Source of the DNA: a virus | Taxonomy: Duplodnaviria > Caudoviricetes | Virus record (IMG/VR): IMGVR_UViG_3300013426_000014 | Location: 160,001-224,000 of that record | DNA length: 64,000 nt | Direction: 5' to 3' (one strand) | Shown: positions 1-55,902 of the stretch, piece after piece | Layout of the letters: each line of letters starts with the position of its first letter | How positions within the stretch are numbered: position 1 is the first letter of the stretch | The notes under the pieces: generated by a model | The model's database searches: none | Seen by the model: only the letters and a program-made list of their open reading frames with translations | Told to the model about the DNA's origin: nothing | Program-made: the position numbers and the translations under genes

Positions 1-3000
1 GTCTTACTGTAAATCTCTGATCATACTGATCACTTGCAGTCTTATTGATATATACATAACCCTTTCTGTCTTCCGCCGCTGTGTTTGCTGTTATCGACAA
101 TGTCACCGAACTATTACCTACGCCGGATGTCTTGTTCGATGTGATCCATGAGTCACTGGTCGTTATCGTTCATCCTCTATTACATGCATCATCTAATGTA
201 ACATAATTACTGATGGCGGAATTATTCTTCAACGACGATCAACTGCTCGATGTAAAATATGGAACGCGCTGTCCGGGCCAGTAAAATATACATGACTGTA
301 GGTACGAACCGGTATTCTTATTACAAAGGGTCAGCGTAAAACTGAAGTCACAGTCTGGATTGGCAGTGTTGCCTGCGCCGATATAAATATTGATTCTCTT
401 GTCGCCTGTCCCGCTTAATATGTTCTGTGTGTCTGGAAGATTTCCACTTGGATCCATGGCGATGTCACCGGTGTCGTCATCACGGACATATATATAACCA
501 CCTGCAGGATCTTCATCAATCCAAGAGTTCGGACCGGATGTCGCGGTGAGCATTACAAACCATCCGACGTTGTCAGGATCTGTGATATTCGCATATATGT
601 CGCCGGCGATGTCCATGTCAAAATCCTCATTTGTCGTTCCGAGATCCCATGACGGCATCACGATGTTGGCGTCCTGCGTCCAATACCAGTTCGGCAATTG
701 GCTGTCTGAACTGGCCTTGTATCCGGAAAATATGGAGTTATATGCAACTCCGCCGTACCTTGTGCTCGTGCCGGTCCACGCCGGCGCGGTGACTGTGAGC
801 ACGTCGCCGTCATACAGGTATCCGCCGGTCCACGCGGATGTCGATCCGTTCCGCGTCAAGGTCGCCGTGTATACATCACCGTAACTCGAATGTGACGTGT
901 ACATGACATAATATACGGAATCATCGCGGTCCGTCACGGTGGATGTAACGCTCCCCGCCGATCCTCCGCCGTATTTCCAGTAATAATATTTCGTCACACT
1001 CGCGTTGACATTCAACGTCCGGGTGTCGCCGCCGGCGGATGACATGTTGGTCATGGAACTGTTTATGGCGTTATAACTGTACTTGCGCTCTATCTTGCCG
1101 TCGCTGCCTGCCTTTTCCACCTTCTCGTCACCGTTCTGTGTCCATGACGCCGTCGCCGTCTTCGTGCCTGTTCCGGCAGAGTCTGTGACGGTCGCGGTCA
1201 GCGACACGGTCCGGGTCGAGGTTGTATTGACGTTCGTCGACGCCATCAGGTAAAGTTTCGATCCGCCCGACGCTGTCGACGATGACGCCGCGCCAGAGCT
1301 CGACGTCGCGGTCGTCCACGCTCCGTTCGATCCTGTTATGCTCGCGGTCACGTTAGAATACGATCCCTCCCCGTTCGACGTCCCCGCCACGGTTCAGTAG
1401 TATACCGGCTTGCGCCGCGCGGTCAGCGTCACGTACGTTCCCGATATGTATCCGCTCGCGTTGCAGGCTATGTTCGCCGTCGATCCCTTCGAGAGCGACA
1501 CGTCATAATAATAGTGATGCGTGTACGTCGTGTCACCGGACTGCGTCACCGACTTCGACGCGGTGAGTCCGGACGTCGAGGACGAGCAGTTGCCCGAATC
1601 GGACGATGATACCGACACCGTCGCGGTCCTGCTCGACGATGTCCCACCGTTCGACGGCACATATAGGTACGCCTCGGTAGATGGCGTCATCGACGTTATC
1701 TTCGTGCCGGACGAGTTCCTGATTTCCGCCCCTGATATGCCGGATACAGATACGGTGAATGACCGCGCACTGTCCGTGTGCGTGGTCGAGCCGTAACTCT
1801 CTACCGTCCCGTCAGAGTTTCATTTCGTGCTCACCGTATACGTGCTGTTCAGCGTCAGTCTGGTGCTGCTGTTCGCCGCGCACGCCGCCGTGGTCGACGA
1901 CGCGGTCAGCGTCGTGGTATGGTTGTTGCACGTGTACGTGCTGTCGGCCGGCTGCGTTCACGATGTTGTTATGCTTGCTTCTTCTCCGCTGCACACATTC
2001 GTAAAGGCGACGTTAATATTAACATTTTTCGCCGACTTATTGTAAGCGTTCGATGTGACGCCGTACAGATAGATCTTCGTGCCGCCGGTCACTTTCGTCA
2101 GTTTCGTGCCGGACGAGTTCGACGGCGTGCATCGGTCGCCGGACACAGAGAATGATGTCGTCGTGTCGGTTACCGCCGTCCCGTAATATGTGGTTCCGGC
2201 GACGTCTCACTGATACTTCGGTGTCCTTTTCACCGTCAGCGTCGCGTATCCGTACGAGCTCGACGCCACTCCGGACGATCCTGTCACTGACGGGTTCCAT
2301 GACGAGCTCGCCTTCGTCAGTGTCGTCCCGTCGTATTTGTAGCAGACGAACGACGCCGTGTCGCCCGACTGCGTGATCGTGACGGATCCGGTCAGGCCGG
2401 CGGAGCTTGACTGACAGTTATCTGACTGCGAATTCGAGAAGCTGACCGTCACGGTCCTGCTCGATGTGGTCCCGCCGTTCGACGGCACGTACAGGTATCC
2501 GGCTGTGCCGCCCGTCAGCGACGTTATCTTCGTTCCGGACGAGTTCCTCAGCTCGGCGCCGGTGACGCCTGAGACGGTTACTGAGTATGTCGGCTGTCAT
2601 GATGATGTCTGACTACGTGAATATGTATTGTCGGAATTTCAATAGTATTTTTTCGTGGCTGAACATCTCGGCGTTATCGTGACGGCGCTGTTCGCCGCGC
2701 ACGCGGTTGTCGTCGACGAGCTTGATACCGTTGTACTGTAATCATAGCATGAATACTCACTATCCGCCTCCTGGGTCCATGACGTGCTCGTCGCATATGT
2801 CGAGCATCCTGTGATGGTCGCGTTAATCTTCACGGTCCTTTCCTGTGTCGTGTGGTTGTTGTCGCCGACCGTCACATAGATGACGTCGCCGTTCTTCGCG
2901 GACGATATCGCCGTCCCGGACGAGTTGACGCACGTGCAGTTCGTGCCGGTCAGCGTCACCGTCCCTTCATTGTCAGTCGAGCACGCCGTCGTGATGTTTC

Positions 3001-6000
3001 CCCCGACTGATCATTTGTAATACCGCATCCTTGTGACGGAAAGCACCGCCTTGTACGTCTCGCTCTTCGACGTCCCGGCACGCGGTATCGCGTTCGTTGA
3101 CGCCGGCTCCAGCTTAATCTCATACTCGTCGCATCTTCATGTCTTCGAGTCCGCCGCCTGCGTCCATGTCACGGACTTCGACGCCGCCGCGCATGTGTCG
3201 GACGGCGCGGTGACGGATATCGAGCATGTCCGTGACGACGCGGAGCATGACGACGTCGATCCCGGGTTGGACGATGCCTTTATGTACGCCTTGCCGCCGT
3301 TCGTGATTGTCGTTATCGCCGTGCCGGACGAGTTCGTGAACGAGCAGTTTGATCCGGACAGCGTCAGTGTCCCGTTGTTGTCCGCCGTCCCGGTGTACGT
3401 CCCGCCGCCGTTGGCGTACACGTATTTCGGCGTGCGCGTCACCGAAGCGGTCACATAATAGTCTTTGTTCGCGGAGATGCCCGCCGCTGGAATATCGGTT
3501 GATAAAGATTTCGTCAGTCCGATGTCATATGTATAGCATGACAGTGACGATGTGTCAGGGTTCTGTGTTCATGACGCGGACGTCGATGTCGACGTGCTGT
3601 CAGCCTGACGGAAATACATCGCGACCGTCCTGCTGCTCAGCGTGTTGTAGTTCGTGCCGACGTGTGCGTATACCTTCGTCCCGTTGGAAAGGCTCGATGA
3701 TGCCGTGTACTGCGTTCCGGATGTCGAGTCTGAACTTCACGCCGTGCAGTTCGTCATGCTGTACACGTTAAACGGCGCGTTCACCGCGGATCCAGTGTAG
3801 CCGGACGAGTAGACCGGCTTGCGGGTCGACGTCACGGTGGCGTAAAACGCGTTCGACCCGCCGACCGCTATGTTCGACGATGACGATTTCGCCGCCGATA
3901 TGGTTCTGCCTGTGTATGACGTCAGCGAATTAGTCGCCGACACGGTCGCGGTCTTGGTCGTGGACGTACTCGACCCGTTTGTGCAGGTCAGCGTGCATGA
4001 TCATGTGCCGGTATTGCTTGTCATGTTAGGCAGCGACAGCGTACACGTGTTCGACGAGCCGGACGCGGATGTCGTGCCTGACAGCGTATACTTCGAGTTA
4101 GCGTCTGACGTCTTCGTCACCGCCGCGGTGTCATACACGGTATGGCTGTTATTCGACGACCCGGATGAATAAAGATCCGACGCCGTGTGATACGCCCGGT
4201 ACGTGACCGTCGCGGACGTGCCGGACGTGCCGGACATGCCCGGACCGATACCGGATCCTATCGAAATCTCGGCGGTGTAATTTGACGGACTGTAGTTCGA
4301 GTTCGTTTTCCTGTTCTCCGCCTGATACGCGGTAAGCGTGTAATAGCAGTTCTTGCCGTTCGCGACTACATAGAATGTGGTTCCGCCGTAATCCCCGCAC
4401 GCCGTGTCAGACACTGTCGTTCCCTTGGACGCGTATGTGATCACGCCGGCCGAAGACAACGACGGCGATCCGGACGGTCGAGTGACATTATTGGTCGTCG
4501 AAGAGCTCCGCCATCCGTCAGGTATCTGGTTGATGTAGACACCGGCGACATACCATGTGACCGGCGCGGACTCAGTCCCCGCCGTTCCGGTAAGGTATCA
4601 GTGACCGATTATCGACGCTCCCGGACCGAATTTAATATACGCCGCGTATGTGCGCCATTCGCCGGCTCCGTCAAGATCAGTCGTGTCCATACCATACGAC
4701 CCGCCTGTTCCCGGGGAATTACCCGCCATATTGAGCCTGTATCCTTTCGGGATCCACGCATTAATCGTTATCTCGATCAGCTTTATTCCGGATGTCGGCA
4801 TCGCCGACGGCTGGCAGTTCGTATAAAACCCGCCAAGTCCCGGGTTCGTGCCGCTCCCGGTGTTCGTTATCTTCAGCGCGTATCCGGAGTTGTTCGGCAG
4901 TCCGGACGGATATCCGGATGACACGCGCGTGACAACTGTCTTGCCAGTTGCGTTGTTGTCATATGTGTATCCGGCAAAGCCGTTGTAGAATTCGGGATCG
5001 GTTCCGGCCCCTGTCGCCAATGACGTGATCGCTTGTGTGAGCCGTCAGTCGGACGCGGATTTCATCTCGTCCTCCGTCAGCGTCACTGTCCCCGTGTCTG
5101 ACGTATATGTTGCCGTCTGATACATGAGATCCCATTTAGGGGTCGCGGACCCGCCCGCCGCCGGGACAATCTTGTCATAACGCAGCCCCTTGAATGACGG
5201 CAGTCCGTACGTCACGGTGTTCGCCGCCTGGCTCGCCGTTCCCGCGCATGACGCGGACGCCGATTTGGTCGCGGTTCTGCCGCTTGTCTGGTAATCAGAT
5301 TTCAGCGTGAACGTCATTACCGCGGTCCTTGTTATGGTCGCGGATCTCGCCGCGCCGGTGACGGTCCCCCTGTCGACGCTCGTGACAGTCAGGCTCGCCG
5401 CGTTAGAGGATGTCAGCGTCGCGACGCCTGAATTCGACGTCGACCATGAATAAATCGGACCGGACCACGAGCCGTATGTCGTGACGCCGGATGTCGTTGT
5501 TGATCCTGAATCGAATACAAGCGTGCACGTCCCGGCGGACGCGGATGTCACGTTGCTGAACGCCTTCGACTGCTTTCCCGCCGAATATGACACGCTCGAC
5601 GTTATTGCGCCGGCGTTCGCGGTCACCGACTGCACGGCGACATGGTTCGCCGCCTGGCTCGCCGTCCCGGAGCATGATCCAGCCGCGGATTTCGTGGATA
5701 CGGACCCGCCGTTATATGACGATTTCAACGAATATGAATATGTCGCGGTCCTTGTTACCGTCGCGGATCTCGCCGACGCCGAATATGTCGTGCCTCTTGA
5801 CACGCTCTTTACAGAAATCGCGTTCGCGTCGGTAGAGGTCAGCGTCATGACATCTGAATTTGACGTCGTCCATGAGTACGACGGTCCGGATAATGTCCCG
5901 TACGTCGAGTAGTTCGCGACGCTCGTCCCCGATGAGAATGTTACAGTGACACCGGATATCGACGCCGCCGTTACGTTCGCGAATGTCTTCGACTCAGCCG

Positions 6001-6748
6001 CGGCCGAATATGACACGCTCGACGTTATCGCGCCGCCGTCAACAGACCCCATCGTGACCGCCGTTATGACATTCTTCGCCTGCGTCACCGTGACCGTTTT
6101 CGACGCCGGACCGGAAAGTGTTCCGGTCGACGGCGTCGCCGGCGAGTACGAGTAAGTTACCGTAAACACGGTCGACCCGTCGTAATAATTGTTCGAGAGT
6201 GACGACACAGTCACCTTGCCGGCGGAGTCTATCGACGCGGATCCCCCTGCCGACCCTGACGTCCGTGCCACCGACTTGGAAGGGGTGAATGTGCCGGATG
6301 TGTTCGCCTTGCCGGATTTTCACGTGTATACGATTGTACCGGCGCCGCCTGACACCTGACATGCGCCGCCCGACGCGGCCACGCTCGCCGGCGAGGCGGT
6401 TAATGTTCCTATTGAGTATGTCGTGGACATGATCCAGTCGCCTTTCTGCACGACGGTCAATGTCGCCTTAACGCCCCGTTTCTTTGTAACCGCGGTGATT
6501 ACGGCGGTCCGTTGCGAGCCCGTGTTCGACGCGATTGTCACCGTTACGGCCGTCGTCCCTTTCGGTCCGGACGTCACGTCGAGCGAACATCACGACTGGT
6601 TGGACGATACCGTCCAGTCCGTGTTCGACGTCACCGTGAACGTGAGTTTGTCCGCCGCCGCGTCCGGCGTGTATGATGTCCGCGATAATGATATCGACGG
6701 GTCGACCCCGCCTCCCGATAGCAGCCTGTGCCTGTTGTTCAATGCCAT
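1..6748 (-). CDS. Giant Ser/Thr/Gly-rich tail/adhesin protein with BACON-like domains; read with TGA=Trp; 3' end runs off the window
   Basis: ATG at 6748. The listed fragments 6320-6577, 5045-6271, 4598-5020, 4001-4459, 3737-3943, 3137-3454, 2639-2959, 2207-2488, 1958-2146, 1394-1690 and 239-1390 share one frame, separated only by TGA (17 in total, no TAA/TAG). BACON-like motifs SNTDWTVSSNQS*CSL and RG*TITTSDSWIT. Confidence 0.9.
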
Positions 6749-16192: not shown

Positions 16193-16630
16193 CTATCCGA
16201 TATTCTTTCAATTGAGATTTTCCTCTATCAGATTGACTTTATTCTCGACCGCGGTGAGACGCATGCCGAACGTGTCGAAGTCGCCCACTGACGCGGACCA
16301 CAGGTTTTTCAGGTTCCATTCTTTTTTGCCTTCGGATCCGTCGACATATTTGACCGTCAGCACGCCGTTGTCATAGTCGAGATTAACGTCTTTCACGTAA
16401 TTTTTAAGCACGGCCCGGATTTCCGCGACGCTGTCGTCCAGCGTCTGTATCTTACCCGGCACGCCGGCGAGCTCTGCCTTCAGCGTCTTGCTGATATTTC
16501 CATATGATCCGCCGTTCATCCAGATTTCCTTCGTGTCCGTCGCGAAATACACCGCGTTGGTGTACTTTTCCCTGTTGACCGGGTTCTTGTAATCCTCCAG
16601 CTTGCCCCTGTAAAAATTTAATGTCGCCAT
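16193..16630 (-). CDS. Small structural protein; terminal TGA probably read as Trp
   Basis: ENLN*KNIG then TAG; neighbours end similarly in SLAWYVEE and EMEWIVVTGE. Confidence 0.7.
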
Positions 16631-17982: not shown

Positions 17983-18891
17983 ATGCCTAAAAACAAACTG
18001 ACGCTGCACATGGCGGGATCGTCGTCGCAGTTCGTCAATTACCTCAAGGACTTCCAGAAAATTTCAAGAAGTCTTTTGCTCGAGATTGATCCTTTCAACC
18101 GGCAGTTCATCGCGAAGACGTTCTCTGAGAACAGGAACGCGATCAAGTTCAGCGCGATATCGTTCGACGACTGCAACATGCAGATTTCCGCGCATGACCA
18201 GACGGACGAGCTCAAGGATCTCAAGTACAGGATCAAGCTTGGAATTCTCGTCCAGCTTCCAAAGATTATCAGCATCATCGAGCGTTTCGAGTCCGACGCG
18301 AAGGACGAGAACTCGTTTGACATCATTGTCAATTATGATGTGCTCCGCGACGCGTCCGGCGGCGTGTCAGATTTCATCGCGGAGAATATTCAGTTTAACT
18401 CGTCGTTTCTCACTATGAAGATGGATGGTTTCAGACCGGCGGAGTTCCGGTATCTTCCGGATGACCAGTTCAACAACAGTATATTCAAGCTGACGGATTC
18501 GGTCGATTTCCTTATGCCGTCCGCTGTCATCGCGTCCGTTATCAAGACGTCCGACATCGTCAAGATTGATCCGAACAAGGACACGCTCGTGTTCTATGTC
18601 GACGGCAAGGACGTTTACGTCAAAGACTACACCGGCAAGGATAAGTCTGGCAAGGACAACCAGTCGAATTTCGTCTATAAGATAGGCGAGCTTGACTCCG
18701 AACCCGGATATCCGGTGCGCGTCATGATCTTCAGGAACATGTTCATCCAGTTCCTCGATAAGTCGTCCGACGATTATACTGTGTTCTTCGGTAAGTCGGT
18801 CAACGGCGCGGTCGACAGGTTGTGCATGCAGACAGTGTCAGACAAGGGCGCTGTGTCAAAGGTCGTCATTTCTGTTGTCAACGAGGATTAA
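17983..18891 (+). CDS. Hypothetical protein, possibly DNA sliding clamp (gp45-like)
   Basis: 302-aa ORF; N-terminal YLKDFQKISRSLLLEI loosely resembles gp45 N-termini; weak assignment. Confidence 0.45.
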   Translation: MPKNKLTLHMAGSSSQFVNYLKDFQKISRSLLLEIDPFNRQFIAKTFSENRNAIKFSAISFDDCNMQISAHDQTDELKDLKYRIKLGILVQLPKIISIIERFESDAKDENSFDIIVNYDVLRDASGGVSDFIAENIQFNSSFLTMKMDGFRPAEFRYLPDDQFNNSIFKLTDSVDFLMPSAVIASVIKTSDIVKIDPNKDTLVFYVDGKDVYVKDYTGKDKSGKDNQSNFVYKIGELDSEPGYPVRVMIFRNMFIQFLDKSSDDYTVFFGKSVNGAVDRLCMQTVSDKGAVSKVVISVVNED

Positions 18892-18911
18892 TCTCCAAAT
18901 TGCTTTGAAAC

Positions 18912-20003
18912 ATGAGTAACATTAAAAATATCAAGAGCGACGGCCAGCTCGAATGGTCGAGAAAGGCTGCGGCTGAGTTTGACTGGAGCCTGTATGAAGA
19001 CGGGTGGGACGGAAGTGGATTGCGCGTCAATAAGAAGGTGAAGACCAAATCGAAGAAGGATTTGGTGTTCTGCCATGAGAAATACGCACAGAAGCTTTAC
19101 GATCTGTACGAGAATAACGGCATGCCTGCAGAGGGCGGCGGCAAGGATCTCGGTGTCAACACTGTCGTCATGGCGAAGACGATGACCAGGATTTCTGACC
19201 ATGAAATCAGTCTCGACACCGACGCGGGACTTACTGTCATTGTTGACATGAATAAGGAGAAACAGTTCATCGACGCTTGTAACGGCGCGTCTGTCCGGGA
19301 GTTCATGGATGAGATCGCGAAGCCTGATTCCAAGTTCCGCGACGCGTTGCTTAACCAGGGCGTTTACGCGAAGCAGATTAAAGGCGGCAGGACCTCTATT
19401 TGGGAAGGTCACATCGCGAAGATCCAGTCAGAGTTCGCCGAACAGCTCAAGAATCCGACTTTCGCGTACAAGGCGAAGGTGCTTGACGCGAACAACGGCG
19501 GCTATATCGTCGATGTGCAGGGTATCAGGTGTTTCATGCCGGGATCGCTCGCCGCGGCCGGTGTTATCACGGATTTCTCTGAGCTCATCGGCAAGGAGGT
19601 GCCGGTCATGGTTATCAACTATGTCAAGAACCTTGGCTTCATTGTGTCGTATAAGAAGTATCTTAGTACGATTCTGCCGCATAAGATTGAGACGGAGCTT
19701 GTTATCGGTCAGCAGATTACCGGACGTGTCACCGGCTGCAGCAAGTTCGGTGTATTCGTCCAGTTCCCTGACACCAATGGTGAGTGGGTGTTCTCTGGAC
19801 TTGTTCATACGTCAACGATGAGCAAGGATTTCCGCCGTGATTTCGACGCGCACCGCATCGATACCGGTGACGGGGTCGATCTGTACATCAGCAATATCGT
19901 GTTCGAGCCGAAACGGCAGAGGATTATCCTTACCGATATCAATCCGCTCGACAAGCTCAAAGCGGCATTTGACTCATCCGTGTCTGAAAAAAGACATAAG
20001 TAA
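18912..20003 (+). CDS. Ribosomal protein S1-like RNA-binding protein (at least two S1 domains)
   Basis: AKVLDANNGGYIVDVQGIRCFMPGS and GRVTGCSKFGVFVQF...SGLVHTS are typical S1 repeats. Confidence 0.85.
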   Translation: MSNIKNIKSDGQLEWSRKAAAEFDWSLYEDGWDGSGLRVNKKVKTKSKKDLVFCHEKYAQKLYDLYENNGMPAEGGGKDLGVNTVVMAKTMTRISDHEISLDTDAGLTVIVDMNKEKQFIDACNGASVREFMDEIAKPDSKFRDALLNQGVYAKQIKGGRTSIWEGHIAKIQSEFAEQLKNPTFAYKAKVLDANNGGYIVDVQGIRCFMPGSLAAAGVITDFSELIGKEVPVMVINYVKNLGFIVSYKKYLSTILPHKIETELVIGQQITGRVTGCSKFGVFVQFPDTNGEWVFSGLVHTSTMSKDFRRDFDAHRIDTGDGVDLYISNIVFEPKRQRIILTDINPLDKLKAAFDSSVSEKRHK

Positions 20004-20032
20004 TCTGTCTTCTGACTTATATAATCTGTATT

Positions 20033-20668
20033 ATGAAGATTATAATTTTGGAAGGTGTTGATAATCTTGGCAAGAGCACGGTGGCTCGTGCTCTTGCCGA
20101 TTTTTACACGAAAGAAGGTTACGGCGTCGTGTCGATCCACTGTGTCGCCCGGACGGATTTCAACTGTCTAGCCCGCGAGATTTGCGAGATGGAATATGAA
20201 GAGTACAGGTCGAACAGGGACGGTGAGTTCAGGAATGAGACGCTGTTGATACTGGATCGGTCATGGAAGGACGAATATGTTTATGGTCCGATTTACAGGG
20301 GCAAGACAAAAGGTGAGATGATTAAACGCATACATGACATAGTCGTTCCGATCCGGAAGAAACTGGTCGATTGGCGCGCTAACATGTATGAGGTCCTGCT
20401 TGAGGCGGATCCTGATTTTGCGATTGGCAATGACGATGACAAGTCTTATTATTCCGGGATGGAGTATGACGACAAGGTCAACCGTGTAGAGTATGAGATG
20501 TCGATGTTCCGTGAGGCGATGTCGGTCAATGAGTTCTTTCTTGACGGTGATCATAAGATAAATGTCAAGGTCGATCATGACGGTAAATTCCGTCCATTGT
20601 CCGATATTACCGGCCAAATTACTGGCCGAATTAAATTCAAAAAGTTACAGGATGATACAGTATCTTGA
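20033..20668 (+). CDS. Thymidylate kinase-like P-loop kinase
   Basis: [15 protein letters not shown]-loop and LILDRSW motif; ends TGA with a back-up TAG three codons later (20675). Confidence 0.75.
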
Positions 20669-21479
20669 TCTGCTTAGGGATGTGTTGAAGAACGGCGTTA
20701 AGAAAGAAGACAGGACTGGCACCGGCACGTTGAGTGTGTTCGGCAGGATGGTCAGGTTTGATTTGAATGCCGGTTTCCCGTTGGTCACAACGAAGAAAAT
20801 TCATATGAAATCGGTAATACACGAGCTTCTGTGGATGATTTCTGGAAACACTAATATAAAATATCTGCAAGACAACGGCGTGCGAATATGGAACGAGTGG
20901 GCGGATGGAAATGGTGATCTCGGCCCTGTTTATGGAGCGCAGTGGAGAAATTTCGCCGGTACTGGTGTCGACCAACTTGCTGACGCGGTAAAGACGCTGA
21001 AAGAAAATCCGTCCAGCCGCCGGATCATCGTGTCGGCATGGAATCCAGCTGTGCTTCCGGATGAGTCGTCTAAAGATTTCGCCGCGAACGTCGCCGCCGG
21101 TAATGCTTCACTTCCGCCGTGTCATTGTTTTTACCAGTTTTATGTGTCAGATAACAGGCTGTCATGCATGGTATATCAACGTTCCGCGGATATGTTTCTC
21201 GGTGTGCCGTTCGACATCGCGTCATACTCACTGTTGACGATGATGATGGCGCAGGTCACCGGCCATGAGTTGGGTGAGCTCGTCTATGTGTTCGGCGACA
21301 CGCACATTTACTTAAATCATATCGATCAGGTAAAAGAACAGTTGACGCGTGAGCCGCGTTCACTTCCTGTCATGAATATCAATCCGGACGTCAAGGATTT
21401 GTTCTCGTTCGGTTATGACGACTTCAAATTGGAAGGATATGATCCGTGGCCGGCGATAAAGGCGAAGGTTTCTGTGTAA
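20652..21479 (+). CDS. thyA: Thymidylate synthase
   Basis: [12 protein letters not shown] and [18 protein letters not shown] motifs. Confidence 0.97.
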
Positions 21480-21985
21480 TGATCGGTATGATAGCTTGCG
21501 TGGCGTCCAACGGCGTCATAGGAAAGGACGGCAAGATGCCGTGGGGTAACGGATTCAAGGACGATCTCGCTTTCTTTAAGAAATATACGATGGGGAAGAC
21601 CATAGTTATGGGCAGGAAAACGTATAAGTCATTACCCGGCGGCAAACCGCTTTCTGGAAGGATTAATATCGTCGTGTCGAGACATTCGACGTTGTCCGAT
21701 TATCCGCCCGGTGTCATGTTGTACGACAGTCCCGAATCTGTTGTCGATTATGCTGAGAACGGCGGGCAGTGGATAGCGGTGATAGGCGGCGGCGAGCTGT
21801 ACAGGAGTTTTCTTGACAAAACCGACGAGCTGATGCTGACTGTCATTCGCAAGAAGTATGACGGCGACACGTATTTTCCGGAATGGGAGAATATTGATAA
21901 GATCTTTCCTGTCAGGAAACGGGTCGGCGGCGGCAAGGATGAAAAAATCGGATTATACACAATTTACAAATACACCAGGAAATAA
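21479..21985 (+). CDS. folA: Dihydrofolate reductase
   Basis: NGVIGKDGKMPW, VMGRKTYKSL, IGGGELY, GDTYFP; translationally coupled to thyA (TAATG). Confidence 0.95.
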   Translation: MIGMIACVASNGVIGKDGKMPWGNGFKDDLAFFKKYTMGKTIVMGRKTYKSLPGGKPLSGRINIVVSRHSTLSDYPPGVMLYDSPESVVDYAENGGQWIAVIGGGELYRSFLDKTDELMLTVIRKKYDGDTYFPEWENIDKIFPVRKRVGGGKDEKIGLYTIYKYTRK

Positions 21986-21986
21986 T

Positions 21987-22265
21987 ATGGCGGATATGAA
22001 AATGAAGGCGCCGGCGGTTGGCGCGATAAACCAGACAGAGGTTTTGCTGAACGCGGAGAACGTCAGGTGTTCGGCATGCGGATGCACGGTATTTACACCG
22101 GGCGTCGTGTTTAAGCGGGTCAGCGCGTTGGCCAGCCCGTCCGGCCGGGAGGAAACGGTCCCGATTGATGTGATGCTGTGTCAGAAATGCGGCAAGCCAC
22201 TCAACCTGTTCAAGTCGGAGGATCATTACAATAGAATCCTTGGCGAGGGCGTCGTGAAACTTTAA
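21987..22265 (+). CDS. Small zinc-ribbon protein
   Basis: CSACGC...CQKCG. Confidence 0.7.
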   Translation: MADMKMKAPAVGAINQTEVLLNAENVRCSACGCTVFTPGVVFKRVSALASPSGREETVPIDVMLCQKCGKPLNLFKSEDHYNRILGEGVVKL

Positions 22266-22285
22266 CAAACAAAACGATTTTTTGT

Positions 22286-22510
22286 ATGGAATCATTCGGT
22301 TACTATAAGGTGACGGTGAAAGTCGGTGTCGAGCAGGACAACGGCAAGATAAAGAACCACAAGGAAACTTATCTTGTGATGAACGCCGGATCGCCGCAGG
22401 CCGCGGCGGATCGGGTTCAGGACCTTTTCAAGTCATGCATGGACGAGTGGCGGATTGAGTCGGTCAAGGTCGAGAAGATCGACGATATATTGAACTGCTC
22501 CGTTGATTAG
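22286..22510 (+). CDS. DUF4494-like small protein (Bacteroidota family)
   Basis: YKVTVK...NGKIKNHKETYLV...IESVKVEKIDDI pattern. Confidence 0.65.
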   Translation: MESFGYYKVTVKVGVEQDNGKIKNHKETYLVMNAGSPQAAADRVQDLFKSCMDEWRIESVKVEKIDDILNCSVD

Positions 22511-22528
22511 ACACATGTTGTTACAGCG

Positions 22529-22557
22529 AAGGCGGGAGGTGAGGCTCCCGCCTTTTT
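22529..22557 (+). terminator. Intrinsic terminator
   Basis: AAGGCGGGAG-gtgagg-CTCCCGCCTT followed by Ts. Confidence 0.75.
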
Positions 22558-22612
22558 CATTATAAAAAATGACGTTCAGTATTTATATTATATATAAGAT
22601 TAATTGTGTTCA

Positions 22613-23176: not shown

Positions 23177-23181
23177 CAGTC

Positions 23182-23553
23182 ATGCCGTTTGTTTATGATT
23201 TCAACAAGGCGTTCACACCGGTCAAGACGGTGGACGTCTGTCCGGATGGGTGGAAACCGGTCACAGTGGAATATGTCACCGGTCAGCCGAATATGTATGA
23301 CACGATGCAGAGTGTGTGCTGGCGGGTCAAGGGGACGACACACACATTCACAATATATGAGCGGCGGCTCAATCAAATTTCACACGGCGATTATGCTGAA
23401 CATTTTAAGGAGGCTCTTGAGGGGTTCAGAAAAGACTACAATAACTGGCAGTCGGATCCAAAATACGCCGGATGCGGGTGGGTCGACGAATATATCAGAC
23501 AGTTCGGCGGGTTCATCTTGCCGGACGGGGGTAATGTCGGCGCGGGTCAATAA
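23182..23553 (+). CDS. Hypothetical protein
   Basis: 123-aa ORF in operon context. Confidence 0.7.
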   Translation: MPFVYDFNKAFTPVKTVDVCPDGWKPVTVEYVTGQPNMYDTMQSVCWRVKGTTHTFTIYERRLNQISHGDYAEHFKEALEGFRKDYNNWQSDPKYAGCGWVDEYIRQFGGFILPDGGNVGAGQ

Positions 23554-23577
23554 TGTAAAAATAGGATAGTAAAATAT

Positions 23578-24447: not shown

Positions 24448-24515
24448 CGGGAGTTCCTGGTAAAGCGTGTTGGGTGATAAATAGTAAAATTTTATCACCC
24501 AACTATTTTGTTATT

Positions 24516-33149: not shown

Positions 33150-34000
33150 TGAAGTTTTTTAATAAGGACATAGATTTGCGCTCGCGTTTTTTCAGTTCGG
33201 TATACGCGTGCGGTGACATACACGGGTCGTTTGATACGTTCATATTTGATCTCAAACGGAAGAAAATCAAGAACGCCGTGGTTATAATATGCGGTGATAT
33301 ATCACTTGGCTTTAGCAAACCGGCATATTACGAGCAGGTGTTCAAGTCGATGCAGGCGAAACTATACGATCTGAATGTCACAGTTCTGATGTTCCGTGGC
33401 AATCATGACGATCCGGACTGGTTCAAGTTCAACGATTCCGGGTTTGATTATGACTATACGAACATTGTGGTGCTCGATGATTATTCGGTCGTCCGGTTGA
33501 AGGACGATCTGTCGGTTCTTGTCATCGGCGGCGCCGTGTCGATCGACCGGAAACTTCGCGAGTTGAACGGGTACAAGTATTGGACAGGTGAGGAGGTTTG
33601 TCTGCCGGAGAAGAACATGATAAAGAAATTCTGTTCGCTGCCCGGTCGGCATATCGTGTGTAGTCACACTGCCCCGGATTTTGTGAACGCGACCGCGGGT
33701 AATGCTCCGGCGGACGTGCTGGAGAATTTTATTTCATTGGGTGATAAGAATCTGCGTGACGACATAGACAAGGACCGGAAAACGTTGACCGAATGTCGGA
33801 AACTTATGGATCCGGCGCCGGAGTTGTGGCTATACGGTCATTTTCACGCGCACGCTGAAGAGACGACTGACGGGATCAAATATGTGATGCTTGATCGTCT
33901 CAGGGATAACATATCGCATACCCGTCATGACATGACAATTCCGGATTCGGATTTCTGGCTAAAGCGAGATGACATATGTGATTGGTATAAGGTATTATAA
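33149..34000 (+). CDS. Calcineurin-like metallophosphoesterase
   Basis: GDIHG, GD, RGNHD, GHFH motifs. Confidence 0.9.
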   Translation: MKFFNKDIDLRSRFFSSVYACGDIHGSFDTFIFDLKRKKIKNAVVIICGDISLGFSKPAYYEQVFKSMQAKLYDLNVTVLMFRGNHDDPDWFKFNDSGFDYDYTNIVVLDDYSVVRLKDDLSVLVIGGAVSIDRKLRELNGYKYWTGEEVCLPEKNMIKKFCSLPGRHIVCSHTAPDFVNATAGNAPADVLENFISLGDKNLRDDIDKDRKTLTECRKLMDPAPELWLYGHFHAHAEETTDGIKYVMLDRLRDNISHTRHDMTIPDSDFWLKRDDICDWYKVL

Positions 34001-34023
34001 GAGGTATTATAAATTTCAAAAAT

Positions 34024-34569
34024 ATGAGAGTCAGGATGAACGGGAACGACAGGTTCGATGAGTATTATTCAGAAGATAATTGGCGCGGGGGACGTCCCGG
34101 CCGGGATTTCGGCGGGAACAAGAACATGTATGGGAAATGGGATCACAAGACGCATTATTACGAGTTTTACACTACCGGCGGGAGGGGACTCAAAGAATGT
34201 ACGTTTGATTTCCTTAAGAAAAATTTCGACGTCAAGGCCGCGCCGAAGTTCGCGGACGGCGAGTTTTATTTCGTCGCGAACAGGGGGAATAGGGAGATGG
34301 TCATAATGTCGTTCCCGTCGGCCGGCGTCATATATAACCACATGACGAGCTCGTATACGTACATCACGCCGTATGGCGAGGTCCCGATGGATTCATGCTT
34401 CAAGACGGCGGATGACGCGATGAAGTGGATCAAGAAGAATGAGGACGCGTCACGAGGCGAGATCATCGCGATAAAGACAAAGGAGCAGGTCGCGGCGGAG
34501 GACGCGGCGAGACATGTCAATTTCGGTCCGGGAGGACCGGGAGGCCAGACTTTCAGTTTTACATTTTAA
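34024..34569 (+). CDS. Hypothetical protein
   Basis: 181-aa ORF. Confidence 0.7.
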   Translation: MRVRMNGNDRFDEYYSEDNWRGGRPGRDFGGNKNMYGKWDHKTHYYEFYTTGGRGLKECTFDFLKKNFDVKAAPKFADGEFYFVANRGNREMVIMSFPSAGVIYNHMTSSYTYITPYGEVPMDSCFKTADDAMKWIKKNEDASRGEIIAIKTKEQVAAEDAARHVNFGPGGPGGQTFSFTF

Positions 34570-34579
34570 TTAAATCTGT

Positions 34580-35419
34580 ATGGACGAGATATACCAGAAA
34601 ATAGTTGTGTACGCGAATAATAAGCTGTATAGGGTCGAGCCGATATCCGATCTTAGTAAGAAGCCTCCGCGGGTGACTGTAAGGTCACTCGCGCGGACGT
34701 ATTATCCAGTACACGGCTGGCTGAAGTGTCTGAACGCGCCGGTCGTGTATATTGGTGATTTGTTTATCGACATAGCAGCTGAGAACGACGCGCAGATGGA
34801 GGATCCGGATGTTCAAACCCCGTACGTGTATGACGAATGGCTTTGTAATGATGACAATTACAAAATGCTGGCGGGGAAGATAGGGATGATTTACCAGCCA
34901 TTGAATGGATCGGGAGGCGAGCTCAAGGAAAACCAGCTTTTGACAAACTTGTACAATATAGATCATTTTGCCGCTGATGATGTAGTTGTGTTTGTCGATC
35001 CGGAACAGATGCGGACGAGGAATATATGCGGGAAGGATGAGTATGACATGTTTTACAAACGTGTCGCTTATATATGCGGGTCATTGTCTAAGGTGTATTG
35101 GGAGCAGAAGCGGGCAGACAATCCGAAAGTTGTGCCGCCGGATCCGAACGAGACGGAGACGCGGAGTTATCCCGCGGAGGTTGAGTATGTGACGTCGCCG
35201 TCGACGTCATATACAATAAAGAATGGTGACGAGATTGTCGATGCTGTGGACGGTTTGTTGTATTCGGATGGTGATAACACCAACATCGCGGTTAAGACGA
35301 AAGACGGCGCATATATGGTCAGAACCGTCCCGGGCGCGTTCGTCGTGTATGATGAGAGTTCCGCCAGGATTTCGGTGTTCCCGTCCGATCCGTTGACAGC
35401 GAAAGGAAAATCAAGTTAG
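34580..35419 (+). CDS. Hypothetical protein
   Basis: 279-aa ORF. Confidence 0.7.
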   Translation: MDEIYQKIVVYANNKLYRVEPISDLSKKPPRVTVRSLARTYYPVHGWLKCLNAPVVYIGDLFIDIAAENDAQMEDPDVQTPYVYDEWLCNDDNYKMLAGKIGMIYQPLNGSGGELKENQLLTNLYNIDHFAADDVVVFVDPEQMRTRNICGKDEYDMFYKRVAYICGSLSKVYWEQKRADNPKVVPPDPNETETRSYPAEVEYVTSPSTSYTIKNGDEIVDAVDGLLYSDGDNTNIAVKTKDGAYMVRTVPGAFVVYDESSARISVFPSDPLTAKGKSS

Positions 35420-35429
35420 CCGTCAATAA

Positions 35430-36239
35430 ATGGAATCTAAGATATACAGCGAGACAGAACTTAAGGATTTATTATCCAATAAGTTAGGTGTAGATAAAGA
35501 AGAAGCGAGATCATGTGTCACCACAGTCAGCAAGACACTTGATTCTATGGCTTCGCCGTTTGATGCGGAGGCGACGGCACGCAAGTGTTACGAGAAGGCG
35601 CAGCGGATGGGTCCGGAATATAAGTATCACGGCATGTCAGTTCAGGATATTCTCGATTGCTGGGACAGGAAAAACAAAGACGCGTGCGAATGTGGTAGGC
35701 TGGTCGACGATTTCATCGGTTCGATGCTCGATAAATCGGCGATGACGCCGGATGATTTCACCGGACTGAATGACAGGCTGAACGCGGCGAAGACAGAATG
35801 GCGTCGGAAAGTGGAATGCGCGGGGAAGACATTGGATACGCTCGCCGCAGCCGGGTATGAGTTTATGTCAAGGGAGCGTGACCTGTGTGATCCATTGAAG
35901 CGGATCCGCGGCAGGTTCGACGCGATTTATTACAAGGACGGCGCGGTGTGGCTGTTCGACTGGAAGTCCAACGATGAAATCACGGTCGAGAACAAGTACG
36001 AGAATTTTCACGGGCCGATGATGGGTTTCCCTGAATGTAAGTATTATCGGTATTCGATGCAATTGTATATATATAAGTACATATTGCGGATGTATTACGG
36101 TATCGGTAATGACATCAAGACCGCGTTCATTCAGATGACAGAGAACGATCCGGTTATATATAATACGGCGAATCTTCCGTACAGTGACGAATTCGTCAAT
36201 TCGGTTATAGAGTATGGTGCTATGCGCGCCGCCCGATAA
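35430..36239 (+). CDS. PD-(D/E)XK (RecB/Cas4-like) nuclease
   Basis: E...IRGRFDAI...LFDWKS...YSMQLYIY. Confidence 0.8.
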   Translation: MESKIYSETELKDLLSNKLGVDKEEARSCVTTVSKTLDSMASPFDAEATARKCYEKAQRMGPEYKYHGMSVQDILDCWDRKNKDACECGRLVDDFIGSMLDKSAMTPDDFTGLNDRLNAAKTEWRRKVECAGKTLDTLAAAGYEFMSRERDLCDPLKRIRGRFDAIYYKDGAVWLFDWKSNDEITVENKYENFHGPMMGFPECKYYRYSMQLYIYKYILRMYYGIGNDIKTAFIQMTENDPVIYNTANLPYSDEFVNSVIEYGAMRAAR

Positions 36240-36980: not shown

Positions 36981-37148
36981 ATGGCGTTTTGGGATAATAT
37001 ATTCAAGGATGACGATTCGGACATAGACGGGTTGCTTCGTGACGATGAAGACGATTTCGATATCGGATCAGATGATGACGATATTGACGACGGCGTTGAT
37101 GATGAACCGGATGATGACTCCGGTATGGACGACGAATGGGATTATTAA
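36981..37148 (+). CDS. Tiny hyper-acidic protein (55 aa)
   Basis: MAFWDNIFKDDDSDIDGLLRDDEDDFDIGSDDDDIDDGVDDEPDDDSGMDDEWDY; below the ORF-track cutoff; fills the intergenic gap. Confidence 0.6.
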   Translation: MAFWDNIFKDDDSDIDGLLRDDEDDFDIGSDDDDIDDGVDDEPDDDSGMDDEWDY

Positions 37149-37161
37149 TTTCTGACATTTT

Positions 37162-37422
37162 ATGAGTAAGTCATACAAAAAGGCCGTTTTTAAGGACAAC
37201 GGCATGGGCAAGGATATATTGCGCCGGCAGATCCGGAGCTCTCAGAAGAACTACATAAGATCTAATATTGACAAATTCCTTGATGACGGCGACGCGAACA
37301 TCCCGGACGGGAAGACGATAATGAATGATTACAACTGGTGCGACTACCGGTTTTATCATGAACACGCGAACAAGAAAAACCGTGACAATGATGAGTGGTA
37401 TAAGTTATTCAGACGGAAGTAA
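37162..37422 (+). CDS. Small basic hypothetical protein
   Basis: MSKSYKK...WYKLFRRK, a common phage small-protein pattern. Confidence 0.7.
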   Translation: MSKSYKKAVFKDNGMGKDILRRQIRSSQKNYIRSNIDKFLDDGDANIPDGKTIMNDYNWCDYRFYHEHANKKNRDNDEWYKLFRRK

Positions 37423-42835: not shown

Positions 42836-42906
42836 GCCCCTGTCGCTAATGGTGAAGCAGACAGTCTCCAAAACTGTTAATGCCTGTTCGAGTCGGGCCG
42901 GGGGTG
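42836..42906 (+). tRNA. tRNA-Trp(CCA)
   Basis: ACAGT-CT CCA AA-ACTGT; compact D arm; G discriminator. Confidence 0.85.
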
Positions 42907-42922
42907 CGAAATATTGGAAGTT

Positions 42923-46859: not shown

Positions 46860-47224
46860 GCCTTCGTAGTTTAACGGTAGAACAATGGTCTTTGAGAATG
46901 TTGAATACAGTTTGTATATGATGTGTATGAATGCTAGCATTCATCCAGATCTTTATATAGAGTGTATTTGACACAATTGGAGCTTGCAAATCGAAAGGTT
47001 TGCAATGGACATGATGATAACGTTGAACCCGTAACAGGTCACGCTGACGGTAACGACGTCGGAACGGTAGATTTGCCGGCCGCGAGAGAGTAGATAATCA
47101 TGCACCTGTAGCGATTGATTTCGTATGGTGAATACGTACTCCAGACCACAACGATTTTTGTCGGCATGGTAACATGCGTGGTAAGCAAAACCATTAAGTG
47201 TGGGTTCGAATCCTACCGAAGGTG
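46860..47224 (+). tRNA. Opal-decoding tRNA-Trp(TCA), split by a group I intron (exons 46860-46892 and 47186-47224)
   Basis: Spliced sequence GCCTTCG TA GTTT AACGGTA GAAC A ATGGT CT TCA AA ACCAT TAAGT GTGGG TTCGAAT CCTAC CGAAGGT G: canonical cloverleaf, tRNA-Trp-like body, G73. Confidence 0.9.
46893..47185 (+). mobile_element. Group I self-splicing intron, 293 nt, no ORF
   Basis: Follows U, ends in G. IGS TTGGAG (46977-46982); P2 GAAA hairpin (46984-47005); P3 CATGAT/ATCATG; P4 ACGTTG/CGACGT; P6 CGG/CCG; P7 G(A)GAGTA/TACTCC; P8 CACC/GGTG; 3' ACCAC/GTGGT helix with GCATG-GTAA-CATGC. Confidence 0.9.
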
Positions 47225-49591: not shown

Positions 49592-50059
49592 ATGAACCAT
49601 ATTAACGAAGATTTTGATTTGTCTAATATGTCAGATATAGACTATATTGATATATTTGCTGACATTGATCAGGATGCAGAAATTGTTAATAATTTCACCA
49701 ATGCATTAAGGCGAGATTTGTATCTTACCAATACAGCAATTCCAGATAATTTTGATGTCGGCGGGGTTGATTTAATCAAAATAGATGACGATTGCATCGT
49801 TGGGAAGATTTTGACATGGGACGCGGAAAAAGTAATGCATCATTTTGGATTATACAGATTGTTTTGTTCGATTATATTATATCCTGGCAAAGACGGGCAG
49901 ATAGAGTTCAATAGGCGGATAGGTCTTCCATGACGGATTGTGTCAAAAACCGAAGCATGTAATGTCAGAATCGTTACAAGTAATTTTATGATGACAGACG
50001 GCGCGCCATTTTCCGTTGACGGCGAGGTGACAACCGTGGTCAGGTCGTGATGAAATTAA
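49592..50059 (+). CDS. Paralog 1 of acidic-leader family (TGA read-through)
   Basis: INEDFDLSNMSDIDY leader; frame continues through TGA 49931, 50048 and 50051 to TAA. Confidence 0.6.
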
Positions 50060-50119
50060 ATGATAATATATAGGTGTTGCATTGTATTATTAAAAGATAA
50101 GCAAATATATAGAAAGTCA

Positions 50120-51184
50120 ATGAGTAACCAGATTAAAATACAAAAAAATCAATACCTGAACGATTTTTTAGTAACAGAAGATTTTGATTTCAGCGACATG
50201 TCAGATGTCGACTACACTGACACTTTCAGTGATATGGATCAAGCAGCGGAGGAAATGTTTGATTTCACGGCATGCCTCCGGAAATCCATTCTTATACGCG
50301 CACAGACACAAGAGAAGAAAGGATTTATCCGTGGTTCAGATCCGGCATTTGACTCGCTTTTCGCCACTGCTGTATCTGGTTCTGCTGCAGACGGATGAAA
50401 TGTAGATATCAAATCCACATCAGAAGCAATTCTTCTTAATATATTTGGTGGAACATCTGTGGATAATAATGGTTTCCATACTATTTGTATTGTGCTAGAT
50501 TTAGCGTCCGCCACTGCATCGTGAGTGAAAACTGCGCGATGACGTCTATTATCCTCACCAGAATCCAATACACGATATATTTTGTATATCCGCCCTGCCG
50601 GACCGGGGACTGGAAAAAGAAACGGATCGATGATTGGATCACCGGAATATGTGTTCGGCGATGTCATTGCTGGTGATCCCGTTATTGAGCCGATGGTCGG
50701 GCTTAAACCGATAACATTGCGTACTTTAATCGGCTCGCCTGTGGAAGTGACCGGAGATTTTATCTGTACTATGGATCCCGCTGGTCCGTTTGTCCCGGGT
50801 TTTTTGAACGGAGCGCCGGAACGGATCGGTCAAAACTTCGCGGTCCATGTGACTGGAGAAGAACGCATGTCACGTTCCATGACATCATTTTTGTGGGACG
50901 GAAAAGGAAATATTATTCCGGCTTTCACTGATGGTATCAGACGGGTGGTGAAAGGTTTTTTTGTATACCCACCGCATCCTGGCGCCCGTTCTGTGGAACG
51001 GCGGAAATCTGAATGTGACCTTATTGTGATTGGAACCTCATCATCGCAGCGGAGACTGCCTCCGAGTCTTGTCGGCAAAACGCTTCCGGATATGGAAGTT
51101 TCGACCGGTAATGTGGTTGTATACGGTGATCCGGTGGTATGTGTCAAATGATTGGCAAAGGTCAACGGCGTGTACGTTGAATAA
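50120..51184 (+). CDS. Paralog 2 of acidic-leader family, 4 TGA=Trp
   Basis: 50060-50398 and 50582-51151 share a frame; only TGA at 50396, 50522, 50540 and 51149 before TAA; GSPxxVxGDF repeats. Confidence 0.75.
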
Positions 51185-51223
51185 AATTAGACAGAAAGAA
51201 TAACGGTAGTTAAAAAATATTGT

Positions 51224-52189
51224 TTGACTGAAGAATTTGATCTGACTGGAATGTCCGAAGTCGACTACACCAACACGTTTTCTGATATTGACGAGAAAGA
51301 ACAAAAGAAATACACAGAGGAGTCCATATTGCGCTCGCATATATTGACATGATACGGCGAGTCGACCATACCGGATTTCATCTGGAATGATGAATGCACA
51401 CATGTCGATTTGAAATTTCCTTCGCATTGCGATTTCTCGCATGACAATATGAATTTGTATCTTTTTGCTGACGGTGTCGCACTCGCCGAAATTGTCCGAA
51501 ATAATATCAGTTATACGATTGATCCATTGTACCAGATAATCGTCAAATTGACCGCGGCCGGACATGGAGACGGCGGAAATATGATTTATACAGGGAACAT
51601 GGACATCGATTTGACTGGATGTCCTGATAAATGTGGAAGGCTTACCATTCAGTTAGATGAGCCGTTTAATACATTTTCTTTCACCGGCTCCCCGCGGGAG
51701 GTCGACGGAGATTTTATCGTCCGTGATATGTGGGCGGACGTCAATGACATGACTGGCGGTCCAGACAGGATCACCGGGTCGTTTTATTGGTATGCAAAGG
51801 CGAATATTCCAGGCAGGCTGAAGTCATTGTTGGGATGCCCGTTCGAAATTATGGGCAATATGTCGGTTGTGAATTCACCGTGCGCTCGATTTCCGTTGAA
51901 TGCAGGGCATAAAGTAAAAATCGGTGGATTACTAAATGCCGGCTATCTTTCTCAAGATACGATTCCGGATATGATCAAAAAACGGGGATACACTGTATTG
52001 TCAGACGGTGCGGTTTTGGAAATGACCACAGGAGGAAAATCTGCTTGATCACACGTAATTAAAGGTGACGACCGTGAACGAGCCGCGCCGGATTTCAAAG
52101 TTGATGGAGATATATATTCCGCCGTATACATCGCATGGAACGATGAGATCGGAGATAAGACTTATATATGGCAGCTGCCGAATTCATAA
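51224..52189 (+). CDS. Paralog 3 of acidic-leader family, 2 TGA=Trp; start uncertain
   Basis: LTEEFDLTGMSEVDY leader in frame with 51410-52048 across TGA 51350; continues past TGA 52046 to TAA; GSPREVDGDF repeats. Confidence 0.72.
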
Positions 52190-55116: not shown

Positions 55117-55902
55117 ATGTCTTTTTCGGTCAATGAATATATCAGGTCCGGCGGACGTTCACTTGACGCGGGGATTCGCGCGGGCAGGCGGTATTCCGTG
55201 CTTGAGTCGTTTTACCCGCGGGGAATTGTGCCGGCGGATGTACGGAACAGGTTTGGCGCCGATCCACGGTTCGATTTTATCAATGAGAATCTGAACACGC
55301 ATGATTATAATATCATGATGAAGGCGGTGGAGCGGTATCTCGGTGATCATCTTGACGGATGAAATCCGCTGTTCGGAAAAGACAGGGAGCTTGACATGAT
55401 AGAGCTGCGGTTTCCGTCGTTCATCATGTCGGAAATATATGAGGACGACCCCGGGCTTAGGGATATACTTGACTTTTATGGGTATTACGTCACCCATATT
55501 GAGGATAATGTCATTCAGGTCGAGCCGAAATATTCCAGGAATATGAGTTCATACATATACGGCGAATGCCGTGGGATTGTGTTCCATATGACAGATGTCA
55601 ATAATATTCCATCAATAATGCGGAATGGGCTGAGAACGAAAACGGCGAGGTATCGTATTTTTCCGCGGCGTGTGTATGTGTTCGCCGATCCAGATATCAT
55701 GGATGTTAATGACGATATATTCGCTGAATACGCGCCGGAATTGATGGAGCGTCCAGAGAATTTGTCCGTCCTTAAGCTTGACGTCCGCGGGATGGGTGTC
55801 GATTTTTATCAAGATCTCGCGATGGACAGGGACGGTGTGTTCTTCACGTATACGAATTTGCCAGCGGCGTGTATTGTCGGATGCAGTCGCGTGTTGAAAT
55901 AA
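55117..55902 (+). CDS. ADP-ribosyltransferase-fold-like protein, 1 TGA=Trp
   Basis: Upstream piece is in frame with 55396-55902 across TGA 55360; VFHMTDVNNIPSIMRNGL...RVYVF...LKLD resembles ART/KptA-like folds. Confidence 0.6.

Follow-up and report, generated by a model that had tools for sequence, protein, structure and literature searches.

Tryptophan at TGA, with a bias to late genes, and an intron-split tRNA(UCA) gene in a T4-like jumbo phage of gut metagenomes

How can a virus, in a cell that probably terminates translation at UGA, use that codon as sense in long genes of structural type and still have its early messages decoded? The question is raised by a stretch of 64,000 nucleotides (nt), termed the window, that constitutes bases 160001-224000 of one 269,322-bp virus record, IMGVR_UViG_3300013426_000014, whose completeness is estimated by CheckV as 87%. 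The record is 50% GC, with a GC3 (GC at third codon positions) of 0.65. It is from a T4-like jumbo phage of gut metagenomes in which TGA is a second tryptophan codon, and its T4-like packaging and virion genes, recognized with PHROGs and Pfam, are those for large terminase, portal, head closure, baseplate wedge and prohead protease. The account argued for here, and considered probable as a whole, is that TGA specifies Trp predominantly in late genes, that the early genes are neutral with respect to the code, and that synthesis of late proteins awaits a phage-encoded tRNA(UCA).

The meaning of the codon is directly visible in alignments, and from comparison of sequences its identity as Trp in this phage is established. 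Pertinent first are four independent metagenome assemblies (L216-L219) with about 85% DNA identity to window 17.4-38.6 kb. Opposite the TGAs of this phage, these close relatives have TGG 22 times, TGA 6 times and other residues 8 times, with the 8 confined to a site upstream of the real start and another three codons from a stop. All four TGAs of the gene at 24945-25949 are TGG in them. In 27345-29048, TGA109 is matched by TGG or TGA and TGA187 by TGG, while the relatives have a TGA of their own at W111; the TGA at 37153 is retained as TGA in four relatives. The initial annotation had suggested profile alignment of the TGA columns as a check, and with 120 homologs of the 27345-29048 product TGA109 is W in 117; TGA187 is Y in 110, F in 6 and W in 1. 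For the terminase, all of 120 homologs have W at TGA264, and TGA468 faces Y, F or W. Two further relatives of 61-68% terminase identity, one of them JS_HB1_S134_scaffold_565796 (68%), themselves have TGA as Trp, and their TGAs face W of this phage 33 times, TGA 14 times, F 4 times and other residues 6 times.

Comparisons internal to the genome are in accord when the paralogs are close. TGG-Trp is opposite all four TGAs of 50060-51184 and opposite TGA114 of 49592-50059. Pairings proposed earlier among internal repeats also hold up on inspection: with X denoting TGA, SXTQ at 3569 and 1958 corresponds to SWTQ/TWTQ at 2777, 1142 and 3164, SVPX at 8653 pairs with SVPW at 9133, and both BACON copies have a W-x7-W pair encoded by one TGG and one TGA. 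An all-against-all tally of internal paralogs, which at 20-30% identity is too noisy, gave W plus TGA at 8 of 59 positions opposite TGA. As an aside on the terminase open reading frame (ORF), genome 72296-74407, its first ~150 amino acids (aa) are without a match to terminase profiles; many terminase homologs have an intein-splicing Pfam match, and TGA102 is in this N-terminal ~150-aa part, in a variable column.

A quite different proposition is that assembly error or pseudogene lesions account for the in-frame TGAs, or that these encode selenocysteine or glycine. ARAGORN does label the phage tRNA(UCA) 'SeC', owing to its anticodon. In that tRNA, however, the acceptor/T arm is of 7/5 type and the variable loop has 5 nt, which sets it apart from tRNA-Sec, and the in-frame TGAs of the genome number 260. 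Independent assemblies from other samples have the same TGAs, and public protein clusters, also from other samples and some with nearly 200 members, begin just past them. Glycine, cysteine, selenocysteine, pseudogene readthrough and assembly error are ruled out by this recurrence together with aligned residues that are W or aromatic rather than G or C, and the probability left to the proposition is minute.

Where the codon is used is as relevant as what it means. Genes were called with a simple codon-log-odds caller trained on long ORFs, with TGA taken either as stop or as sense. A gain in coding density with TGA as sense had been put forward as a check on the recoding, and it is seen: the called genes go from 342 to 239 and the density from 0.81 to 0.88. 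Within the window, the density of 1-10 kb rises from 0.82 to 0.97 and that of 10-20 kb and 30-40 kb is unchanged. The in-frame TGAs are in 96 of the 239 genes (40%), and the unevenness of their distribution and its dependence on reading frame are matters of direct observation. As a proportion of TGA plus TGG, TGA accounts for 33/113 (29%) in late-type units of the window versus 7/115 (6%) in the rest (Fisher p 3.5e-6), and in the genome for 0.305 in the block 11-170 kb versus 0.119 elsewhere (p 8e-13). Out-of-frame TGA in the window is at 76 per 1000 codons in early genes versus 50 in late genes. In the two genome blocks its levels, 65.6 and 65.0 per 1000 codons, are equal, which makes the depletion a matter of reading frame and not of composition. 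Structural genes with TGA include those for terminase (4), portal (2), head closure (5), baseplate wedge (1) and prohead protease (1). Among the giants, an amidase-containing protein has 5 and a BACON protein has 20.

The early genes show the other side of this distribution. Those for thyA, folA, dut, PolB, S1, PurA-like and Pth2 proteins had been described as devoid of internal TGA and ending in TAA or TAG; this is the case, and Pfam supports the names (thyA, folA, dUTPase, PolB, S1, Adenylsucc_synt and PTH2). Orthologs of the early genes in the four ~85%-identical relatives are likewise TGA-free. Code-neutrality of the early genes is in this sense directly observed since, without TGA and ending in TAA or TAG, they are read identically under both codes. 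A TGA at 20666, in the block 17983-24941, is three codons ahead of a TAG, and relatives have Arg there. With regard to the polymerase, separate pieces of family B DNA polymerase are at distant loci, window 30058-33149 and genome 11184-12497, and the latter piece has TGAs at codons 10 and 12 that may precede its true start.

TGA is never the sole stop of any called gene. It is directly ahead of TAA or TAG five times, versus about 0.8 expected by our own estimate, and this excess suggests that a few of the TGAs abutting a terminal TAA or TAG are former stops, now backed by a second stop. In a separate count, 11 TGAs versus 4 expected are at most 5 codons from the terminal TAA or TAG, the window cases being at 16208, 20666, 39346-39522 and 45264-45674. 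For the first of these, in 16193-16630, it barely matters for the product whether the TGA is a stop or Trp.

Whether a switch of code is needed at all depends on the host, for which a standard-code member of the Bacteroidota is likely from sequence affinities. The nearest thyA homologs are from Bacteroidota (64-71% identity), the presence of BACON domains points the same way, and GenBank phages with a homolog of 27345-29048 have Prevotella, Tenacibaculum, Chryseobacterium or Flavobacterium as hosts, the exceptions being Sphingomonas phage PAU and three uncultured phages. No CRISPR-spacer or culture link to a host turned up. If the host itself used code 4, as Mollicutes do, the phage would simply match it and there would be no switch. 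TGA as Trp, the lack of any gene relying on TGA alone as stop and the lack of a phage release factor would all fit. They would have to be reconciled with in-frame TGA in only 40% of the called genes and a long block essentially without it, with carriage by the phage of its own tRNA(UCA), with TGAs next to terminal TAA or TAG at several times the expected number, with a genome GC of 50%, and with the Bacteroidota indications just given. A code-4 host is considered very unlikely. Code-25 phages, in which TGA is Gly, have in-frame TGA in ~90% of their genes (bioRxiv 10.1101/2021.08.26.457843). With 96 of 239 genes and with W or aromatic residues in the alignments, the present phage does not have the profile of one matched to code 25 or code 4.

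A decoder for UGA has to come from somewhere, and the supposition in the initial annotation of a phage tRNA for TGA was right as to its existence, though the gene, 46860-47225, is split by an intron and is missed by default calling. Default calling gives 33 tRNA genes, all within window 42.4-62.4 kb and none with anticodon UCA; ARAGORN with intron search located the split gene. After joining of its exons, the tRNA has a canonical cloverleaf that passes at 120% of the ARAGORN threshold, whereas phage tRNA-Trp(CCA) passes only to 110%. Both have G1.U72, C2-G71, C3-G70 and G73. Identity of bacterial tRNA-Trp resides in discriminator G73 and in C35 and A36 of the anticodon, and these are present in tRNA(UCA) as G73 and U34-C35-A36. 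What default calling reports as 'tRNA-Cys(gca)' at 47154-47225 is spurious, being built from the 3' half of this same gene, with no Rfam tRNA match and failure at 105% of the ARAGORN threshold. Mollicutes, in which UGA is read as Trp by tRNA(UCA) beside tRNA-Trp(CCA), provide a parallel for the coexistence of the two tRNAs. Reassignment in Mollicutes is genome-wide in a cell; here it involves part of a virus genome and would be imposed on the host in infection.

Existence of the tRNA and the exact join of its exons need no conjecture, as relatives with a neighboring DUF7873 protein 97% identical to that of this phage (L220-L223) differ in the intron. Two have, at the same locus, an uninterrupted 73-nt tRNA(UCA) (L222:5890-5962 and L223:1536-1608) that is identical to the predicted join, and this identity fixes the exon-intron boundaries. 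The other two have the intron there in a 333-nt version (L220:4031-4436 and L221:5405-5810). A more distant relative (terminase 68%) has a homologous intron of ~212 nt in a homologous tRNA (L224:5358-5642); ARAGORN mis-set its boundaries and called the anticodon as tta. Across the four intron sequences, those of this phage, L220, L221 and L224, there are 17 compensatory pairs, and long unpaired stretches are invariant. The intron-bearing precursor has a much more stable fold than its shuffles (z-score -5.7).

What class of intron it is can be judged less firmly. Group I introns are known in the anticodon loops of bacterial and plastid tRNAs, for instance tRNA-Leu(UAA). The present intron resembles them in its site between nt 34 and 35, in following an exon that ends in U and itself ending in G, in being compact and highly structured with GNRA hairpins and no ORF, and in its presence or absence among close relatives. 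It differs in that Rfam gives no intron or ribozyme family in 46885-47195, with Intron_gpI unmatched even at E up to 10, and in a P1 guide pairing of only 3 bp; constrained folding also yielded no convincing group I helix map. The sequences thus point to a conserved structured intron for which group I type is probable but unproven, given the lack of an Rfam match and the short guide pairing, and its self-splicing with a guanosine cofactor is putative. Existence of intron-free alleles makes the intron dispensable, and it may be a mobile passenger. Five distant relatives have no intron homolog, and searching viral contigs for exact matches to the tRNA exons yielded none; for two of the five (35-37% GC), simple ORF statistics are uninformative on code. 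In its intron mode ARAGORN also reports insertions of 42-67 nt in tRNA-Arg(tcg) and tRNA-Ser(tga) of relatives (L220:1436-1568 and 6216-6346; L221:2827-2959 and 7588-7731), which may be false calls.

Signals for late expression are a further consideration. The top enriched word upstream of genes is ATAAATA, mostly with G or A before it and mostly 23-49 nt ahead of start codons. For [G/A/T]ATAAATA, 40 of 73 sites are 5-120 nt upstream of same-strand genes versus 3.7 expected (~11x). The T4 late promoter, read by gp55, is TATAAATA. The motif here resembles it, and T4-like virion and packaging genes are common to both phages, although its first base is mostly G or A and its promoter activity is putative. 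In the window the motif stands ahead of each minus-strand late unit and of both opposite-strand islands. TATAAATA itself is found at 49451-49458, ahead of the paralog family at 49592-52189; no late-type motif is upstream of 55117-55902. Copies at 42223, 46603 and 48426 are in front of and inside the tRNA arrays. A Bacteroidota-type box, TAnnTTTG, has a mild upstream enrichment (18 versus 6.3 expected) and was not used. Two ORFs resembling sigma70 region 2 are candidate late transcription factors with putative homology to gp55: the one at genome 41735-42493(-) is above the Pfam cut-off and TGA-free, and that at genome 77666-78073(-), with one TGA, falls below it and has 84% identity to its counterpart in a relative.

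A temporal switch of code is the mechanism that these features best support, though it is reached by inference. Where the genome is structural or late in character, two opposite-strand islands in the early region of the window included, ~30% of Trp codons are TGA. Early mRNAs for replication and nucleotide metabolism would be correctly translated by the standard-code host ribosome with or without suppression. Full-length protein from TGA-bearing mRNAs would come only after production of tRNA(UCA), removal of its intron and aminoacylation, for which Trp and the host enzyme are the most likely partners. From the sequences we also infer the standard code of the host, the splicing of the intron, the charging of tRNA(UCA) with Trp and the delay of late-protein synthesis.

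Several observations weigh against this account. An earlier form of it had TGA confined to late and virion genes; the strong bias to late and structural genes stands, strict confinement does not, and the exceptions are in both directions. Genome-wide, a gene for a gp47-like phosphoesterase has 2 TGAs and a RecA/UvsX-like gene has 1, while three fibre-like late genes of the window (10351-16066) have none, and relatives' orthologs of replication genes that are TGA-free in this phage carry TGA. Half of the TGA-bearing window genes have no function assignable with Pfam or PHROGs. The intron-free alleles imply that the system works without the intron, and neither an RF1/RF2 release-factor domain nor a gene of class I tryptophanyl-tRNA synthetase (TrpRS) type was found in the record. 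When genes of the whole genome are classed by being downstream of a late-type motif in a same-strand run, TGA use is 0.241 versus 0.232 (p 0.77), and the support from the motif is consequently kept for the window only.

Some of these same points would be expected from historical drift, with TGG changing to TGA wherever modules have resided long enough and with the decoder active throughout infection. Absence of TGA from the early block would then be due to a distinct ancestry, or to highly conserved enzymes being under stronger purifying selection. The two-way exceptions, the TGAs in relatives' replication genes and the failure of the motif-defined class to separate TGA use genome-wide are congenial to drift, as are the fast turnover between TGA and TGG among 85%-identical relatives and the GC of the early block in the window (0.48 versus 0.56). 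However, the early-gene depletion is specific to frame, with out-of-frame TGA undepleted; the same early genes are TGA-free in relatives; drift does not predict that early genes never use TGA as sole stop; and unrelated clades of recoded phages display the same bias (bioRxiv 10.1101/2021.08.26.457843). Drift as the full explanation is judged unlikely.

Within the temporal switch, a narrower idea is that timing is set at the RNA level, with the time of transcription or the rate of splicing of tRNA(UCA) determining when late mRNAs become translatable. It derives from the sole UGA decoder being both intron-split and conserved, and from the late-type boxes in the tRNA array; it is possible but doubtful. 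A suppressor tRNA has been detected in just 35% of code-4 phage genomes, and failures of detection are suspected (bioRxiv 10.1101/2021.08.26.457843). If the idea is true, split genes could explain part of the remaining ~65%. More generally, default tRNA searches can overlook a key decoder when an intron splits its gene, and the alleles with and without intron in near-identical phages are a natural comparison for tRNA processing against the timing of late proteins.

Both the pattern and its interpretation have already been published for TAG- and TGA-recoded gut phages, in which replication genes vary as to whether they use the alternative code (Borges et al., bioRxiv 10.1101/2021.08.26.457843). 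The TGA-recoded (code 4) Jade, Sapphire and Agate clades are alike in being large gut phages with TGA as Trp concentrated in structural modules that are dispersed through the genome and with a suppressor tRNA. The share of recoded genes in the phages of that work is 26-71%, compared with 40% here. They differ from the present phage with respect to the intron-split suppressor gene, to the lack here of any RF1 or TrpRS gene found, and to the Bacteroidota host signal. The low-GC route to recoding proposed for them (bioRxiv 10.1101/2021.08.26.457843) is ill-suited to a phage with 50% GC and a GC3 of 65%. In crAss-like and Lak phages, reassignment of TAG to Gln (code 15) has been validated by metaproteomics (PMC9523058). 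The logic in those phages is the same, with a reassigned stop in late genes, early genes that a standard-code Bacteroidota host can read and a phage-supplied tRNA; codon and amino acid are different, and validation at the protein level is theirs, the present phage being known from sequence alone. The terminase and the 27345-29048 product both have their nearest homologs in GenBank among Lak phages. Introns interrupting tRNAs are noted, for recoded jumbo phages at large, in a later survey (PMC13037316). The recoding strategy is therefore already known, and what is distinctive here is the split decoder gene and the moderate GC. The case adds a well-documented reassignment of a stop codon by a virus inside a cell that likely has the standard code. 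There is also a practical side, as ~100 genes of this phage fragment when annotated under the standard code, and such fragments are already in public protein sets.

Features of the window are collected in Table 1, for which all in-frame TGA positions were re-derived from the sequence. Every TGA site listed before was recovered, with two amendments to the listing: its count of three for 7027-10200 should be four, and the TGA-bearing ORF 37039-37422(+), with its TGA at 37153, had been omitted.

Table 1. Coordinates of genes, tRNA parts and late-type motifs in the window
Feature	Position	Strand	Remarks
Giant BACON-domain protein, probable adhesin or fibre	2..6742	-	17 in-frame TGAs in window
Fibre-like paralog, 1057 aa	7027..10200	-	TGAs at 8653, 8077, 7339, 7309
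Three fibre-like late genes	10351-12201, 12311-13954, 13976-16066	-	Zero TGA
145-aa gene	16193..16630	-	Single TGA, 16208-16210, 5 codons ahead of TAG
Early/metabolic block: S1-domain, thymidylate-kinase-like, thyA, folA, small ORFs	17983..24941	+	No internal TGA; TAA/TAG ends
Predicted membrane protein, 334 aa	24945..25949	-	4 TGA, no TGG
dUTPase and small ORF	26084..27256	+	TGA-free
Two-gene opposite-strand unit	27345..29970	-	29053-29970 without TGA; 27345-29048 with two
Replication block: family B DNA polymerase pieces, phosphoesterase, PD-(D/E)XK-like nuclease	30058..36239	+	TGA-free
127-aa ORF	37039..37422	+	One in-frame TGA, 37153-37155; downstream of late-type motif 36236
Phage tRNA-Trp(CCA)	42836..42907	+	
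tRNA(UCA) exon 1, ends in U34	46860..46892	+	ARAGORN
Structured intron, 293 nt, between anticodon nt 34 and 35	46893..47185	+	After U, ends in G
tRNA(UCA) exon 2, C35 to discriminator G73	47186..47224	+	ARAGORN
Three members of fast-evolving paralog family	49592..52189	+	TGA counts 1+2, 4, 2
261-aa ORF	55117..55902	+	One TGA, 55360-55362
Late-type motif, minus-strand structural units	6803, 10249, 12269, 16133, 17866	-	
Late-type motif, both opposite-strand islands	25972, 30003	-	25972 is 23 nt upstream of 24945-25949
Late-type motif sites, plus strand	24477, 36236, 37858, 40050, 42223, 46603, 48426, 49452	+	

For most of the TGA-bearing genes in the window, Pfam and PHROGs give nothing useful. 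The giant BACON gene terminates beyond the window and when complete encodes 2626 aa, with its 20 TGAs. The product of 7027-10200 is a distant paralog of those of the adjoining fibre-like genes, one of which, 10351-12201, has a Pfam Phage_fiber_rpt match. The gene 24945-25949 is on the strand opposite to that of its neighbors. Assignment of TGA-bearing genes to the virion, which was part of the original proposal, is unproven for 24945-25949, for the 49592-52189 family and for 55117-55902.

More can be said of 27345-29048, whose 567-aa product is spike- or fibre-like and has its TGAs at 28722 and 28488. An AlphaFold model (mean pLDDT 72) shows, after an N-terminal domain, a long helix and then a beta domain at the C terminus. 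Matches to the last are sub-threshold, with a phage capsid spike as Foldseek best (E 2.8e-3) and with tailspike or spike domains at VIA Z 6-7, so that the resemblance in the model to spikes and tailspikes is only suggestive; a PDB sequence profile search with the product gave no match.

The family at 49592-52189 has paralogs elsewhere, at genome 29-32 kb, 47 kb, 228-232 kb, 255-260 kb and 265-267 kb. Its members have a common N-terminal stretch of ~40 aa, and identity in the family is down to 59% where that of the neighboring gene, in the same phages, is 97%. Few homologs are public, and most of these are fragments truncated at TGAs. Two large proteins with a T5orf172 domain, both TGA-free and at window 40215-42200 and 52287-54113, flank the tRNA arrays.

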